Virus record (IMG/VR): IMGVR_UViG_3300045988_127389
Coordinates: 58,908 to 122,907 of that record
Strand: one strand, 5' to 3'
Length of the DNA stretch: 64,000 nt
From: a virus
Each line of letters opens with the position of its first letter. Within the stretch, counting starts at the first letter, position 1. Position numbers and translations under genes: made by a program. A model generated the notes under the pieces. That model saw nothing but the letters and a program-made list of their open reading frames with translations, did no database searches and was not told the origin of the DNA. Positions 36,863 through 48,524 of the stretch are shown in pieces.

Positions 36863-37774
36863 TTAATGTGCGTTTACATCACAGTTATGCACTTGCATAA
36901 CCTCATTATAGATTTCGTCACCAAGACGTTCACGCATCTTATCCTTCCCGGTATGACCCTTGCCAAATGTATAGGGAATCATGTGGTAGTTGATAAGAAC
37001 TGCAATATGCAGTTTATCTTTATCCGTGATTTCTTTCGGATAGTTCAAGAACAAAGAATCATACGCGCCAACATTCTGATGACTATAATAATGCGCATTT
37101 CCATCAGTTGTTCCGTTCATTTTAATAAATGTCTTAGTAGCCGGTTTACCAATATCATGGACAAGAGCAGCCCACTGAACATACATATTATATTCCTCAT
37201 TTACTGCGTAACGCCACGCCTCTTTCATGTGTGCGCCAAGCGTAAACTCGTGATTCGGATTTTCCTGATTGTAATTCAGAAGGCTATCAACAAGGTCAAA
37301 CGGTTCATACGGAGCCACTAACTTAACACGCCGAACAGTGATTTCGTCCCATCCCTCGAAGTAGTACGGGATGTCAATTCCCTTACGCATACGCTCCATA
37401 GCAGACATAGGGACTTTCCGCTCGCGCTTCTGATTGCGCATAACGCAGACAGAATACGGAGTAGCCATAAAGACGCAATGCTTATGACAGTTTACTTTCG
37501 CCATCTCGCGTAAGAATCCTTCGCGCCGTTTAGCATTGATATTTGTTGCATCATATACAACACTAAAACCATCTTTCATTGCAGCGCGAATCCAATTATG
37601 CAGAGTATTAAATACCAGATTATTGTCAGTCTGGTCATTTTCGTCACCAAAAAGTTCCTTGCGAATCGCATCAGAACTAAATACAAGATACCCTTTTCCA
37701 ATATATTCATTCGCTACAGTAGACTTTCCGCTTGCAGGAAGCCCAACAAGCATAACAAATTCTTGCATATTCAT
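36863..37774 (-). CDS. polynucleotide kinase (P-loop, AAA_33-type) fused to HD-domain phosphohydrolase
   Basis: N-terminal GLPASGKST...DATN...R resembles the T4 Pnk kinase. The C-terminus carries an HD motif (LVHDIGK) and further His/Asp ligands. Confidence 0.6.
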   Translation of the reverse strand: MNMQEFVMLVGLPASGKSTVANEYIGKGYLVFSSDAIRKELFGDENDQTDNNLVFNTLHNWIRAAMKDGFSVVYDATNINAKRREGFLREMAKVNCHKHCVFMATPYSVCVMRNQKRERKVPMSAMERMRKGIDIPYYFEGWDEITVRRVKLVAPYEPFDLVDSLLNYNQENPNHEFTLGAHMKEAWRYAVNEEYNMYVQWAALVHDIGKPATKTFIKMNGTTDGNAHYYSHQNVGAYDSLFLNYPKEITDKDKLHIAVLINYHMIPYTFGKGHTGKDKMRERLGDEIYNEVMQVHNCDVNAH

Positions 37775-37780
37775 ACCTCC

Positions 37781-39043
37781 TTAATTACAGTTGGCAGTAT
37801 ATCTAGCATCTTCACCAGCGCCAAGATAACGAGAAACAAAATTCGGTAACGATGCAAAATTTTCAGAGATAACGTTTGCGAAATCAATTACACCAGTCAC
37901 GCTTTCACGTCCATCCATAATATAATGAATTTTCTTATTATCGCACTGGTCAACAGCGTTGATGACAAACGATAAGTTGAAGTCTCCTTCAACAAATTGT
38001 GTCACGCTCAGGTCACGCATAACGCGACCAACAAACCTATCAACGTCAAACATAGCATATCTGATGCTACCTTGCCATTCGTTGTGTACGTTTGTATTAT
38101 CAATAATTTTTGTGCTTAGATTATTTACATCAGTCTCACCCGGAAGAATACCAGCACCATGTCGAGTTGTATACCAACGTGTAGTATAACAAATCTCAAT
38201 GTCGAACTCGTCCATACTCTTTACATCGAAACCATCTAAAACATTAAAATCTGAACTGAGTCCGGTATATGTCGGAGTCGTATTCTCGCCCTGCTCGTAG
38301 TATTTCTGCGAAATTGCAAGCCCCTGCGCATTTTCAAGCACAATCCGCTTATATTTTGCGCTAAGTTCAGTTTTAGTGAACTTTTTTACCGTAACGTGTT
38401 TGATAAAGAAAGCTAAGTCGCTCAAGAAAGACAACACATAATCTTTCTCAAAATTGTTGATGAACTGCTCCGGGATGTCACGGCCATCAAGAACCTCATG
38501 TAAACGCGCAGGAACGTAATCCATACAAATAATATCCAACTTTTCTGCAATCGGAATCCAATCGTTTTCTTCGTTTGCTTTCTGAATTTCTCTTACAGTA
38601 ATTGCATATTTTGGCTCTCTACTACGAATAATAGCTTCATAAACGCCAAGACCACAAGAACCGAAACGACCATCTCCAAGCGCAGTTTCCCAACACTGGT
38701 TAATTAAAGCGTCCCAAGGCGTAGCAATGAAACAGTTTTCATCAACATATACATTCGGAGTAAAACCAAGTTCACGCAGTTCATCCCACTCCGTAGAAAA
38801 TACCATAGGATTTACCTGAAAAATTTCACTGATAATAGTATCAGCACCGTTCATAGTTCCAGAACCGAAATGATGAAAAATGTGACGCTTATCTCCCTTT
38901 ACAACAGTATGACCTCGCTGTGCTCCTCCATTTGTGAGCACGACCGCCATATCGCCGTTCTTGCATTCACGAGTAAAGTAGTCAACAGTTCTACCTTTCC
39001 CCTCGTCACCATACTGTGCGCCAATCACAATCTTAATGTCCAT
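37781..39043 (-). CDS. adenylosuccinate synthetase homologue (PurA/PurZ family)
   Basis: GAQYGDEGKGR P-loop and NGGAQRGHTV segment match PurA. The start is trimmed to the Met downstream of the promoter at 39078-39106, which has an AGGAGGG RBS. Confidence 0.7.
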   Translation of the reverse strand: MDIKIVIGAQYGDEGKGRTVDYFTRECKNGDMAVVLTNGGAQRGHTVVKGDKRHIFHHFGSGTMNGADTIISEIFQVNPMVFSTEWDELRELGFTPNVYVDENCFIATPWDALINQCWETALGDGRFGSCGLGVYEAIIRSREPKYAITVREIQKANEENDWIPIAEKLDIICMDYVPARLHEVLDGRDIPEQFINNFEKDYVLSFLSDLAFFIKHVTVKKFTKTELSAKYKRIVLENAQGLAISQKYYEQGENTTPTYTGLSSDFNVLDGFDVKSMDEFDIEICYTTRWYTTRHGAGILPGETDVNNLSTKIIDNTNVHNEWQGSIRYAMFDVDRFVGRVMRDLSVTQFVEGDFNLSFVINAVDQCDNKKIHYIMDGRESVTGVIDFANVISENFASLPNFVSRYLGAGEDARYTANCN

Positions 39044-39077
39044 ATAAACCCTCCTGTCAAGCATCTTTGACATCATT

Positions 39078-39106
39078 ATTATATCATAGACGCTAGGAAA
39101 AGTCAA
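39078..39106 (-). promoter_or_regulatory. sigma70-type consensus promoter upstream of PurA/PurZ-like gene
   Basis: AAACCCCTTGACT-17-TATAAT. Confidence 0.6.
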
Positions 39107-39123
39107 GGGGTTTTGCAAAATAA

Positions 39124-46437: not shown

Positions 46438-46597
46438 AATTACTTACCTTTCTTATTTTTACGGACATAAGTTACAACTCTATATCCAGCCATAAGAAAC
46501 ATCATAACACCGGCAGTCATAAGAACTACCTCAAAAATCTTTGTAATAACGCACATATAGCACTTTCAACTCCTTTATATATGTCTTTTACACCAAT

Positions 46598-46626
46598 ATT
46601 ATATCAAAAAATATCAGGTTTGTCAA
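46598..46626 (-). promoter_or_regulatory. sigma70-type consensus promoter
   Basis: AACAGCTTGACA-17-TATAAT. Confidence 0.55.
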
Positions 46627-46665
46627 GCTGTTTTCAAAAATAAATGGGCGCATTGCGCCCACAGA

Positions 46666-47187
46666 TTAGTTCACAATAATGTTACAATTACGCATGACTG
46701 AGAAAGCCGCATTAGCTGCGTCCACAGTAGTACCCTCTGTTGCGGTGGAATCCACATATACCTCATTCTTGTAAAGTGCAGAACGAATCATCAGGGCGTT
46801 CGAGACAACACAAATATCGGCGCAAACACCGCAGATTTCAATTCTGTCGCCGGGAACGCAGTCACGGAGCAACGTATTCACAAGCTCTGTAGAACCAAAA
46901 GAATTTTTGTAAATGATAGTACAATCACGCCTATATAGCGCAAGAGCTAATCCCACCTTATCCACAAGCGCGTGTCCAGAAGTGCCATCAACACAATGGA
47001 TTGGGTATTTCTTAGATTCAGGCAATGTGTCATAACTATCTGCGCTATGGGTATCCATTGTCATATAAATCTTACACTTATTAGATTTATATTTTTCAAT
47101 CTTTTCTACCACGCGCTTAATCACTTCGTCGCTAGGATGAAAGTCGTTCTGCATATCAATAATAACAAGTTTATCAGACATACTCAA
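46666..47187 (-). CDS. isochorismatase-family cysteine hydrolase (PncA-like nicotinamidase)
   Basis: LVIIDMQNDF start and catalytic GVCADICV Cys motif. Confidence 0.6.
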   Translation of the reverse strand: MSMSDKLVIIDMQNDFHPSDEVIKRVVEKIEKYKSNKCKIYMTMDTHSADSYDTLPESKKYPIHCVDGTSGHALVDKVGLALALYRRDCTIIYKNSFGSTELVNTLLRDCVPGDRIEICGVCADICVVSNALMIRSALYKNEVYVDSTATEGTTVDAANAAFSVMRNCNIIVN

Positions 47188-47192
47188 TCTCC

Positions 47193-48524
47193 TTAGTCAT
47201 AACTGGGTTCATTCTTATCATCTCGAAATCTAACAAAGACAGGGAATTGCAAACTACGTAACCCAGTGTTCTTATCTTTAGATATACTTTTATATTTCAC
47301 CTCAATAATTTTACCGAAATATTCCCTCTTATTTGACCATATTTCAGCCCTAAGTTCGTCACTAAGCCCACTTCCAACGCCAACTGCATTATTGTCAAAC
47401 ATCACCCAAATTTTACCAAGCGTATTAGAAAGTCTACCATCACCAGCATCAAAACCAATAATTGGCAAGTCCATTGTATAGAATCGCTTTGCTTTTAGAA
47501 TACCGGAATTACGCTTGCACTGATACGGCACATCATAATTTACCATTACACCTTCCATACCAGCTTTCGTGGCGCGGTCGAGCCAATAATCAATCTTTGT
47601 TTCATCAGTACCTTCATAGAAAAATCTTACAACCTCAACATTTTCAATACCGAGACGATGAATGTCATAAGACAATTCAATCAACAAATCCTTACGAGCT
47701 TTGTACGAATCCTGAGAAATACCATTATCAAAATCTCTGTTAGAAATCCAGTCGAAAATAACATACTTGATACAAGACTTATCAGAGTCTGGACTGTTCA
47801 AAATACCAGTGCCTTTCGTAAAAGCATCGTTATCCGACAATCCTTCCTTATTTTTATATACAAGTTCACCATCAAGACACCAAACCGGAAGTTCTACTTC
47901 CAATTTCTTTAAATCTGACATAATGTGGTCTAGTCCAGTCCACAACTTACCCTGTCTGCTATACATTTTTCCACGATAACAAATACATCTGTTCCCGTTA
48001 ATTTTCTGACTAACAGAGAACCACTCGCCATGTGGAATCTTAACATTATCAATAGATTTTGCAAGTTGGACATCGAATACTGGAATTAACTTGCATCTAT
48101 ACACGCTATTGACAGTTTTTGCGTCAACGCCAAGTCGCAGTTGTTTGGTGAACACGTCATGTATAAACGCAATTTCATTGTTAAAGGTTGGTCTGCCCTC
48201 AAAAGCAAGTCTTACCTTTTCCACGTATGACTGAACCACCCAAAGCGTATCATCATTCGCCGGGTTGTTCATAATATATTTACACACATCTAGCAACGTC
48301 ATGTTAATATGAGGGTCTAATTCCTTTGCTAAATGTTTGCTTAATCTTGCGCTAGATATACCAGTTGTTACGTTTTTGTCTAGCAAAAATTTCAGAAGTT
48401 CATCTGTCTCCTTACTTCTGAAATTATTCAATGCCCACTCTTTGAGAGCTTTCTTACTTTGCATTCTAAGATTAGAACAAAACAAAGTACATTTAATATA
48501 TTCAATGTCGATGTCGAACATCAA
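47193..48524 (-). CDS. ATP-dependent DNA ligase (motif I variant KxNG)
   Basis: Motifs I KINGNR, III LDGELV, IIIa YVIFDW, IV EGVMV, V LKAKRF. Confidence 0.55.
   Translation of the reverse strand: MMFDIDIEYIKCTLFCSNLRMQSKKALKEWALNNFRSKETDELLKFLLDKNVTTGISSARLSKHLAKELDPHINMTLLDVCKYIMNNPANDDTLWVVQSYVEKVRLAFEGRPTFNNEIAFIHDVFTKQLRLGVDAKTVNSVYRCKLIPVFDVQLAKSIDNVKIPHGEWFSVSQKINGNRCICYRGKMYSRQGKLWTGLDHIMSDLKKLEVELPVWCLDGELVYKNKEGLSDNDAFTKGTGILNSPDSDKSCIKYVIFDWISNRDFDNGISQDSYKARKDLLIELSYDIHRLGIENVEVVRFFYEGTDETKIDYWLDRATKAGMEGVMVNYDVPYQCKRNSGILKAKRFYTMDLPIIGFDAGDGRLSNTLGKIWVMFDNNAVGVGSGLSDELRAEIWSNKREYFGKIIEVKYKSISKDKNTGLRSLQFPVFVRFRDDKNEPSYD

Follow-up and report, generated by a model that had tools for sequence, protein, structure and literature searches.

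Host defences that cut tRNA are common, and phages counter them with spare tRNAs and with RNA repair; to our knowledge, the only repair pair studied in infection is Pnkp/Rnl1 of T4. Here we compare this and other described systems with a locus on a stretch of viral DNA of 64,000 nucleotides (nt), hereafter the window (positions 58,908-122,907 of IMGVR_UViG_3300045988_127389). The interval studied, 36863-48524, encodes Pnk-HD, a predicted end-healing enzyme in which a polynucleotide kinase is fused to an HD phosphohydrolase, together with a nucleotidyltransferase of the RlaP family and a ligase of the Rnl5 type, which is the predicted sealing enzyme. An earlier note on this DNA had placed the three in an RNA-repair toolkit, and we too consider them best read as a repair set, one that heals, fills and seals. 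It had extended the toolkit to the whole 12 kilobases (kb), which does not hold: unrelated genes interrupt the interval, and consensus promoters and terminators split it into several units.

In T4, Pnkp and Rnl1 (with Rnl2 and the RlaP member NrdC.11) act as a countermeasure to PrrC, and the window locus would follow the same logic. T4 uses a HAD phosphatase (DxDxT) and Rnl1, whereas the window has an HD domain and an Rnl5 ligase with an N-terminal OB domain, encoded by genes that are not adjacent. The HD domain occupies the position of the HAD domain of T4 Pnkp, just as had been proposed, and no evidence was found for a link to PrrC or specifically to tRNA-Lys, which had been proposed as well. 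In Runella slithyformis HD-Pnk (Munir and Shuman 2017, as described at second hand in PMC6097658), an HD phosphoesterase and a P-loop Pnk are likewise found in one chain, and according to that account such a fusion can be a bifunctional end-healing enzyme. The HD domain of the Runella enzyme is N-terminal in the same description, whereas Pnk-HD has the reverse order, with an N-terminal 5'-OH polynucleotide kinase (amino acids (aa) 1-~150) and a C-terminal HD/HDIG phosphohydrolase (aa ~170-303), and so lacks the Runella-type arrangement. The Runella ligase gene is described there as overlapping the healing-enzyme gene upstream, as is also seen in relatives of the window Pnk-HD; its context is given as a bacterial cluster with Tpt1, whereas the window is from a phage.

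The kinase closest to that of the window is Clostridium thermocellum Pnkp. In the C. thermocellum Pnkp/Hen1 system, a calcineurin-type metallophosphoesterase (MPE) and a ligase are fused in one chain and the methyltransferase Hen1 is added, whereas the window has an HD domain and a separate Rnl5 gene; Hen1 was not found among the window open reading frames (ORFs) scanned. Deinococcus DraRnl and Naegleria NgrRnl share with the window ligase the succession of OB and nucleotidyltransferase domains, at an identity of about 30% or less. We know of no biochemical test of the combination of kinase-HD with Rnl5.

The inventory of phage repair genes of Iyer et al. (2021, Viruses 13:63; PMC7824862) holds tRNAs, ATP-dependent RNA ligases, Pnk, RlaP, Thg1, PTH2 and TROVE, and its repair phosphatases are HAD enzymes, rarely calcineurin-like or HD-like. 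That survey covered jumbo phages, whereas the contigs of the window family are ~115-150 kb long and the family comes from gut Bacillota. An HD phosphatase, called rare in that survey, is standard in the Pnk-HD family, which has at least 1492 members. Among annotated phages, the Bacillus Tsamsa-like siphophages (for example vB_BanS_Skywalker gp121/gp122) have a Pnk-HD homologue that is 32% identical over its full length and annotated 'polynucleotide kinase'. A 'tRNA ligase' directly precedes it, and the region also has a nucleotidyltransferase, an ATP-dependent DNA ligase and a second RNA ligase; the ligase is of a different type from that of the window, and no PurA-like/vWA-like insertion (see below) separates the genes. 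Phage kits of this composition are thus already published and homologous gene pairs already annotated in GenBank phage genomes, so that the 'expanded version' of the T4 countermeasure suggested for the window is the same inventory as in PMC7824862 and no novelty. The current picture of phage RNA repair is unchanged by the Pnk-HD finding.

Pnk-HD, RlaP and the Rnl5-type ligase

The genes at issue, with the small ORFs between the last two, are the following.

36863-37774, minus strand: Pnk-HD, 303 aa (Pfam AAA_33, E 8e-24; HD, E 6e-5, above the Pfam cutoff)
41232-42038, minus strand: RlaP Pol-beta nucleotidyltransferase (Pfam RlaP (PF10127) and NTP_transf_2; PHROG 388, 3e-17)
42031-42399, minus strand: zinc-ribbon-like protein of 122 aa with two CxxC pairs (CMNC6, CKKC39), overlapping the start of RlaP
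42396-42623, minus strand: small ORF
42688-43809, minus strand: Rnl5-type ATP-dependent RNA ligase (Pfam PHA02142 OB, 1e-18; RNA_ligase, 1.5e-11)

These and the other genes listed in the earlier note lie where it had placed them, on the minus strand, and almost every one of its domain calls was borne out by ORF and domain searches. The structure of Pnk-HD was predicted with AlphaFold at a pLDDT of 96 from a 104-sequence alignment (36 from the single sequence). The matches of its kinase half are given below with three figures each, the middle one being the E value of the family profile against PDB.

C. thermocellum Pnk (CthPnk): 1e-12; profile 1e-22; 20.3
Fungal polynucleotide kinase: 0.02; profile 2.5e-8; 17.0
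PSTK: 1e-6; profile 1e-14; 16.8
T4 Pnkp: 1.4e-5; profile 3e-9; 16.4
Mammalian PNKP: –; profile 2e-5; 16.0
Pnkp1: 0.05; profile 6e-9; 15.1
Adenylate, thymidylate and deoxynucleoside kinases: –; P-loop only, 5e-4 or weaker; 12.5 or less

In both sequence and predicted fold, the kinase half falls among polynucleotide and tRNA kinases and away from nucleotide kinases, and the NCBIfam models that it matches are bacter_Pnkp and PSTK. Residues K17, S18, D35, R38 (in SSDAIR), D75 and R117 are invariant or nearly so in 104 homologues; we take the kinase residues of Pnk-HD to be the counterparts of the essential K15, S16, D35, R38 and R126 of T4 Pnkp. The protein thus has the make-up of a T4-type P-loop 5'-OH kinase, with the catalytic Asp and the acceptor-binding Arg.

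The HD half has the complete conserved ligand set H182, H206, D207, H228, H232, H264 and D299 (H...HD...H...H...D). Its only sequence matches are to the HD domain of class II tRNA nucleotidyltransferases, the CCA- or A-adding enzymes (3wfp, 3e-6; TIGR02692, 3e-7; E. coli Cca, 2e-3), and the HDIG model was matched too. DatZ, SAMHD1 and YfbR were not matched in PDB profile, NCBIfam or predicted-fold comparisons, and no HAD (DxDxT) 3'-phosphatase family was found for the C-terminal half in Pfam or NCBIfam. The earlier note had considered that the kinase-HD protein might belong with enzymes of dNTP/dNMP metabolism, for example DatZ-like ones; as found here, the kinase goes with polynucleotide/tRNA kinases and the HD domain with CCA enzymes. 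For the E. coli member of these CCA enzymes, phosphatase and 2',3'-cyclic phosphodiesterase activities have been described (Yakunin 2004, as relayed in PMC1920235).

In the ligase, the PHA02142 OB domain lies at aa 9-94 and the RNA_ligase domain at aa 181-361. Both domains align with Naegleria gruberi RNA ligase (NgrRnl, 5cot; 1.7e-29, residues 5-115 and 155-372), and motifs I, III, IV and V are present as K188-I-D-G, QGE265, REG346 and SFK359. The architecture is that of Rnl5: an N-terminal OB domain followed by a nucleotidyltransferase with KxDG and motifs III-V, and no C-terminal appendage. The earlier note had allowed for a ligase that grouped with DNA ligases only; the protein turned out to be a homologue of the Naegleria and Deinococcus Rnl5 RNA ligases. 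Rnl5-type ligases occur in 331 phage records. In phages that are ~96% identical to the window, the RNA ligase gene contains an intein with a LAGLIDADG endonuclease (L002 2885-5083, L003 2882-5080, L015 13-2211), and in some of these relatives LAGLIDADG genes break up the genes for PhoH and DUF2828 (L003 10956-13269 and 14563-17169); the window copies of ligase, PhoH and DUF2828 are uninterrupted. A short ORF at ~43895-43921 (minus strand), on the 5' side of the ligase, starts with MIVNGKRAL, a near repeat of MIINGKRAL at the N-terminus of the ligase, with synonymous differences between the two. This ORF may have been left behind by an older ligase allele or by recombination.

RlaP carries the Pol-beta GS...DxD motif (FGSQNYG...DSDID, aa 32-47) and is separated from the Rnl5 gene by two small ORFs, so that it lies in the neighbourhood of an RNA ligase. 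RlaP enzymes add one or two nucleoside monophosphates to the 3'-OH of damaged RNA, are required to regain chargeable tRNA after excess damage and, among E. coli macromolecules, accept RNA only (preprint, PMC12776372). Window RlaP is accordingly predicted, from its family and motif, to add one or two nucleotides back to a trimmed RNA 3'-OH ahead of ligation. The zinc-ribbon-like protein of 122 aa has no Pfam family; it adjoins RlaP in relatives (65% identity) and in the distant locus L060 (1861-2328), and is a possible RlaP partner.

Neighbourhood survey and a proposed repair pathway

We surveyed 80 viral contigs with Pnk-HD homologues (38-97% identity), whose ORFs were searched with the window proteins and three further ligase types. 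Dereplication at 90% identity gave 39 phage lineages, and genes within 10 kb were counted as neighbours; 80 viral loci centred on the PurA-like gene served as control. An RNA ligase lies near Pnk-HD in 33 of the 39 lineages (within 3 kb in 27, directly adjacent in 12), compared with 13 of the 80 control loci. The nearest ligase is of the Rnl5 type in 10 lineages, of the Rnl1 type in 4 and of a 435-aa PF09414 type in 17. RlaP is a neighbour in 17/39 and directly upstream of Pnk-HD in 11/39, DUF2828 is found in 10/39 and Thg1 in 6/39. Elsewhere the gene order is ligase, RlaP, Pnk-HD, and in metagenomic phage or prophage loci the Pnk-HD ORF overlaps the end of an Rnl1-type or PF09414-type ligase gene. 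Pth2, YqeY and the MPE were each seen in a single lineage, the window's own.

The conserved unit therefore consists of ligase, RlaP and kinase-HD, to which DUF2828 and Thg1 are often added, and the rest of the 12 kb is lineage-specific; clustering beyond chance holds for the core only. The use of three ligase families is a stronger argument than the raw neighbour counts. That the cluster sits on one strand, as had been pointed out, is correct (it is the minus strand) but uninformative, since nearly all ORFs from 111 to 52078 share that strand. The Pnk-HD family, which almost always has an RNA ligase of one of three kinds as its partner, is a defined, abundant and predicted end-healing enzyme to characterise, and the three partner ligases amount to a natural experiment on interchangeability.

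From family assignments, conservation of catalytic residues, the predicted fold and conserved neighbourhoods we infer the activities, the order of the steps and the RNA target, and we think it fairly probable that Pnk-HD, RlaP and the Rnl5 ligase make up a pathway that heals, fills and seals RNA cut by host ribonucleases. In Pnk-HD, the HD domain would open and remove a 2',3'-phosphate, leaving a 3'-OH, and the P-loop kinase domain would phosphorylate the 5'-OH. Where the nuclease had also taken a nucleotide, RlaP would restore one or two at the 3'-OH; the Rnl5 ligase would then join the break between 3'-OH and 5'-phosphate, using ATP. We favour tRNA as the target because of Thg1, the tRNA genes, Pth2 and the kinship of the HD domain with that of CCA enzymes. 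Thg1-like, DUF2828, PIN-PhoH, Pth2 and YqeY proteins and 13-14 tRNAs would belong to the general upkeep of the translation apparatus and are not fixed parts of the pathway. A large group of uncultured phages of gut Bacillota would thus use kinase-HD (not kinase-HAD), Rnl5 and RlaP for the same job.

Several points weigh against this proposal. The Pfam score of RlaP (24.8 bits, cutoff 23) is above the threshold only barely. The ligase reaches 79.6 bits with the DraRnl equivalog model TIGR02306, whose cutoff is 151 bits, and is therefore regarded as an Rnl5 relative and not as an equivalog. Rnl5 enzymes have been described as nick-sealing RNA ligases that act on nicked duplexes, and we know of no Rnl5 enzyme that has been shown to mend an anticodon loop. 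In the window, 4.9 kb separate the ligase from Pnk-HD, a stretch that holds five or six genes and at least one consensus promoter, whereas the stop codon of the PurA-like gene and the start of Pnk-HD are 7 nt apart, so that Pnk-HD is tightly coupled to the PurA-like gene instead of the ligase. The survey counts were drawn from related phages and are not fully independent. Polynucleotide kinases of the Pnk-HD clade also accept DNA ends, so a DNA or mixed substrate for Pnk-HD has to be considered.

The last point leads to a reading in which DNA or RNA-DNA junctions are the substrates of these enzymes: Pnk-HD would heal nicks with 5'-OH and 3'-phosphate ends, Rnl5 would seal nicks with an RNA 3'-OH strand (primers, embedded ribonucleotides or nuclease-damaged phage DNA) and the DNA ligase would finish. 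An ATP-dependent DNA ligase is indeed encoded in the same region (47193-48524), DnaE, primase-helicase and SSB lie on the same strand 15-20 kb off, and the DNA ligase of Bacillus phage Skywalker is three genes from Pnk-HD. NgrRnl carries the title 'nick-sealing RNA ligase', and Runella HD-Pnk is termed a DNA/RNA end-healing enzyme in a title cited in PMC6097658. Across the survey, however, a DNA ligase is near Pnk-HD in just 2/39 lineages, and the recurrent partners are RNA-specific (RlaP, Rnl1-type ligase, DUF2828, Thg1 and tRNAs). Hence we regard action on DNA or junctions as unlikely.

The PurA-like/vWA-like pair and other genes of the interval

Apart from the core, the interval contains the genes listed here. 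Five sizeable ones had been absent from the earlier note, namely those for the PurA-like, vWA-like, J-domain/kinase-like, isochorismatase-like and 122-aa zinc-ribbon-like proteins.

37781-39043, minus strand: PurA-like enzyme (ORF 37781-39142, likely start ATG 39043; Pfam Adenylsucc_synt, 3e-28)
39159-40121, minus strand: vWA-like protein (PHROG 2971, 8e-50)
40138-41151, minus strand: J-domain and protein-kinase-like protein (family profile against PDB: DnaJ 1e-5, STK33 1.2e-3)
44257-44439, minus strand: small ORF
44515-44916, minus strand: Pth2 peptidyl-tRNA hydrolase (ORF 44515-44946; Pfam PTH2, 1e-32, 112.8 bits)
Between PTH2 (44515-44946) and YqeY (45302-45772): two small ORFs, one with a predicted membrane segment
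45302-45736, minus strand: YqeY/GatB-C-like protein (ORF 45302-45772; Pfam YqeY, 2e-23; PHROG 1460, 1e-23)
45739-46437, minus strand: probable calcineurin-type MPE (PHROG 1649, 4e-25)
46666-47187, minus strand: isochorismatase/nicotinamidase-like hydrolase (Pfam Isochorismatase, 3e-16; weak PncA, 2e-3)
47193-48524, minus strand: ATP-dependent DNA ligase (Pfam; PHROG 114, 1.4e-69; PDB 6rau, 6e-23)

A GGAGG-type ribosome-binding site is found ahead of every start codon among the interval ORFs. Promoters and terminators were located as consensus pattern matches only. By this measure, a terminator (46662-46644) followed by a perfect (12/12) sigma-70-type promoter (46626-46598) lies between the isochorismatase-like gene and the MPE, and a second perfect promoter (41203-41175) between RlaP and the J-domain gene. 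Weaker promoter sites precede the ligase, Pth2 and the PurA-like gene, and a hairpin is also present just upstream of the last. This suggests several transcription units rather than one operon, and Pnk-HD seems to share a transcript with the PurA-like gene and not with the ligase.

Such a layout could also mean that there is no pathway, and that an accessory region has gathered independent genes (tRNA-related, for nucleotide or nicotinamide adenine dinucleotide (NAD) metabolism, for chaperone hijacking), each acting alone. Only 3 of the ~17 interval ORFs are in the conserved core, with Pth2, YqeY and the MPE being lineage-specific neighbours; the consensus promoters and terminator break up the interval, nearly all genes over 52 kb share the strand, and homing endonucleases and inteins are abundant in the region in relatives. 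We nevertheless find this reading quite improbable, because passive accumulation fails to explain why the set of ligase, RlaP and Pnk-HD recurs with three ligase families and often with overlapping ORFs. The PurA-like/vWA-like pair, the J-domain protein, the isochorismatase-like protein, the MPE and the DNA ligase are best explained as separate modules in a shared accessory region.

Of all these modules, the more open question than the repair kit is posed by the PurA-like/vWA-like pair, which is extremely widespread. In an alignment with E. coli PurA, the PurA-like protein keeps GDEGKG, D13, H41 and Q224. Missing from it are the aspartate-binding TTGRRR loop (E. coli T300, T301, R303), whose place is taken by a segment 4 residues shorter, and the C-terminal ~90 aa of PurA; its guanine-specificity motif is altered. 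By the NCBIfam cutoffs it is neither PurA (79 bits, cutoff 402) nor PurZ (NF038379, 32 bits, cutoff 300), its family is not one of RNA repair, and no PurZ structure is among its PDB matches at E<=1e-3. The vWA-like family comprises at least 6819 homologous clusters; none of them has a Pfam domain, and no PDB match was obtained even with the family profile. Its motifs DVTGS70, GGGN143 and MGDE179 (pattern DxTGS...GGGNxES...MGDE), reminiscent of a metal-ion-dependent adhesion site (MIDAS), were read by eye only; in hhalign the MIDAS motif aligned with that of the DUF2828 vWA domain of the window, at no statistical support.

The PurA-like gene is directly preceded by a vWA-like gene in 78 of the 80 viral loci, and the same pairing occurs in Rhizobium phage TM30 and Vibrio phage pv27. 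The pair is thus a separate, very widespread gene pair, which often follows homologues of the window MPE (29/80) and of the isochorismatase-like gene (35/80). In the window lineage it is inserted between RlaP and Pnk-HD and preceded by the J-domain pseudokinase-like gene, an arrangement with the J-domain gene upstream that recurs in 7/80 loci. The J-domain protein has no Pfam family, and tblastn of it against phage records was empty; within its family of 26 clusters HPD is invariant, and the kinase-like domain lacks the usual catalytic Asp. From these sequence features one could speculate, though we consider it rather doubtful, that the pair is a two-component phage system which activates the 6-oxo group of a purine (as nucleotide or in RNA) for a nucleophile other than aspartate. 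Its placement would fit a role tied to RNA repair or to counter-defence against immunity that depletes or modifies nucleotides. Copies of the pair outside the window include those at L090 6962-9236, L091 6097-8179 and L097-L171. At L048 454-1740, in a distant lineage, the PurA-like gene that immediately precedes Pnk-HD encodes a degenerate P-loop, GNSCVG in place of GDEGKG, and a vWA-like partner was not detected; this PurA-like gene may be an inactivated copy.

The proximity of the two genes bears on the proposal that Pnk-HD is an enzyme of nucleotide metabolism working with the PurA-like enzyme, its kinase acting on the (d)NMP product and its HD domain, DatZ-like, on the competing (d)NTP. 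The 7-nt gap, and the hairpin and promoter-like site that precede the PurA-like gene, suggest one unit; the order PurA-like, Pnk-HD is found also in the distant loci L048 and L060, and PHROG names the PurA-like family after a PurZ-type activity. The relation between the two genes is loose elsewhere, however: a PurA-like gene lies near Pnk-HD in 5/39 lineages and Pnk-HD near a PurA-like gene in 14/80 loci, and the constant partner of the latter is the vWA-like gene. Moreover, the kinase groups with polynucleotide/tRNA kinases and keeps the D35/R38 acceptor motif, the HD domain is without a DatZ, SAMHD1 or YfbR match and the PurZ score is far below its cutoff. The window also encodes a separate dNMP kinase and dUTPase (together 14403-15433), and with its own dNMP kinase (14927-15433) Pnk-HD is dispensable for nucleotide phosphorylation. 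A role of Pnk-HD in nucleotide metabolism is thus highly improbable. A Z-genome (2-aminoadenine in the DNA, as in phages with DatZ), with PurZ and a DatZ-like HD protein, was dismissed because of the PurZ score, the groupings of the kinase and HD domains and the neighbourhood statistics.

Among the remaining genes, Pth2 and YqeY had been counted as members of the toolkit and are neighbours of Pnk-HD in the window lineage alone. The likely start of Pth2 is the ATG at 44916, which has a Shine-Dalgarno sequence and gives the 133 aa called in relatives; the protein scores 92 bits with the curated model TIGR00283 (cutoff 82). YqeY is possibly tRNA-related. The calling of a calcineurin-like phosphoesterase agrees with PHROG 1649 and with all five motifs by inspection (GDTH7, GDFG39, GNHE70, H165, GHYH205), though no Pfam match was found even at E 5 and no PDB sequence match; its membership in the repair set is doubtful. 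It occurs in 29/80 PurA-like loci as against 1/39 Pnk-HD lineages, and in other phages it accompanies the isochorismatase-like gene and the PurA-like/vWA-like pair, not ligase and Pnk. The isochorismatase-like protein probably belongs to nucleotide or NAD metabolism and not to RNA repair. What had been listed as a second ligase of the RNA toolkit is an ordinary ATP-dependent DNA ligase, with DNA_ligase_A_M at 35.3 bits (cutoff 26.2), DNA_ligase_OB_2 at 39.1 bits (cutoff 28) and K174-I-N-G-N-R as motif I, and by these assignments is a predicted enzyme of replication or DNA repair. The 705-bp gap between Pth2 and the RNA ligase gave no Rfam match and a folding z-score of -1.3, which is not significant; by these two measures it showed no sign of a structured RNA, such as a Y-RNA-like partner of DUF2828.

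Flanking genes, tRNAs and the phage

Downstream of Pnk-HD, the window contains further genes related to RNA.

25987-31179, minus strand: tRNA array, 13 by ARAGORN (Cys, Ser, Ile, Lys-UUU, Thr x2, Val, Leu, Arg x3, Glu, Trp)
26628-26704: tRNA-Lys(UUU) (ARAGORN)
29729-30571, minus strand: Thg1-like 3'-5' nucleotidyltransferase (Pfam Thg1, 2e-24; PHROG 4717, 2e-81)
31227-32756, minus strand: Band7/flotillin-type protein, adjoining RNA-related genes
32815-34314, minus strand: DUF2828 and vWA 'RNA-binding protein' (Pfam DUF2828, 2e-49; DUF7788, 1e-29; PHROG 850, 3e-129)
35608-36813, minus strand: PIN-PhoH, PhoH2-type (Pfam PhoH, 2e-30; PIN_4, 1.5e-5), immediately downstream of Pnk-HD

PhoH follows Pnk-HD also in the distant lineages L005, L048 and L060. 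The DUF2828 protein has weak VWA matches and no PDB sequence match, Ro60 and Rsr included; from its domains it may be the counterpart of the TROVE/Ro-like protein of phage repair kits. In an unrelated phage lineage, a shorter Band_7 protein (L006 5671-6588) is encoded two genes ahead of an Rnl1/Pnk-HD pair.

The Thg1-like gene and tRNA-Lys(UUU) are present nearby as had been reported. The former scores 86.5 bits with PF04446 (cutoff 29.2) and is predicted from this family assignment to act in tRNA 5'-end addition or repair. The number of tRNA loci has to be corrected from about 17 to 13-14, the 13 of ARAGORN and one tRNA-like element with a defective acceptor stem at 29153-29212 (minus strand; Rfam 52 bits) that ARAGORN did not call. 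This element has good D, anticodon and T arms, the anticodon ACA and 3 of 7 acceptor-stem pairs, and lies 17 nt from tRNA-Glu and close to the Thg1-like gene; it may be a pseudogene or a tRNA needing end repair. At 26920-27007 (minus strand), 1 nt from tRNA-Thr(CGU), a tRNA-Thr(UGU) of 88 nt has a long variable arm, unusual for Thr, and an encoded CCA end.

The virus is a large phage of Bacillota in the gut. Full-length kinase-HD relatives in bacterial genome assemblies come from Bacillota only, and DnaE is 59% identical to that of an unannotated human-gut phage and ~42% to those of a Clostridioides phage and the Bacillus Tsamsa-like siphophages. Near-identical contigs (67-148 kb) come from metagenomes. 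The 13-kb region had no megablast match among 50,697 phage records, and there is thus no close cultured relative. Besides DnaE, primase-helicase, SSB, dUTPase and dNMP kinase, the window encodes ThyX, FolD and two Dam-type methylases; PADLOC gave no meaningful match.

The guanine-cytosine (GC) skew is negative over the span 111-52078 of minus-strand ORFs. At ~52078-52161 the strand switches and the GC skew changes sign, with minus-strand genes to the left and plus-strand genes from 52161 to ~58300, which suggests a point of divergent transcription or a module boundary. At 6300-7323 (minus strand), a dual-specificity-phosphatase-like gene (below the Pfam cutoff) adjoins a gene with a NADAR domain, and the two may relate to ADP-ribose or NAD-linked processes.

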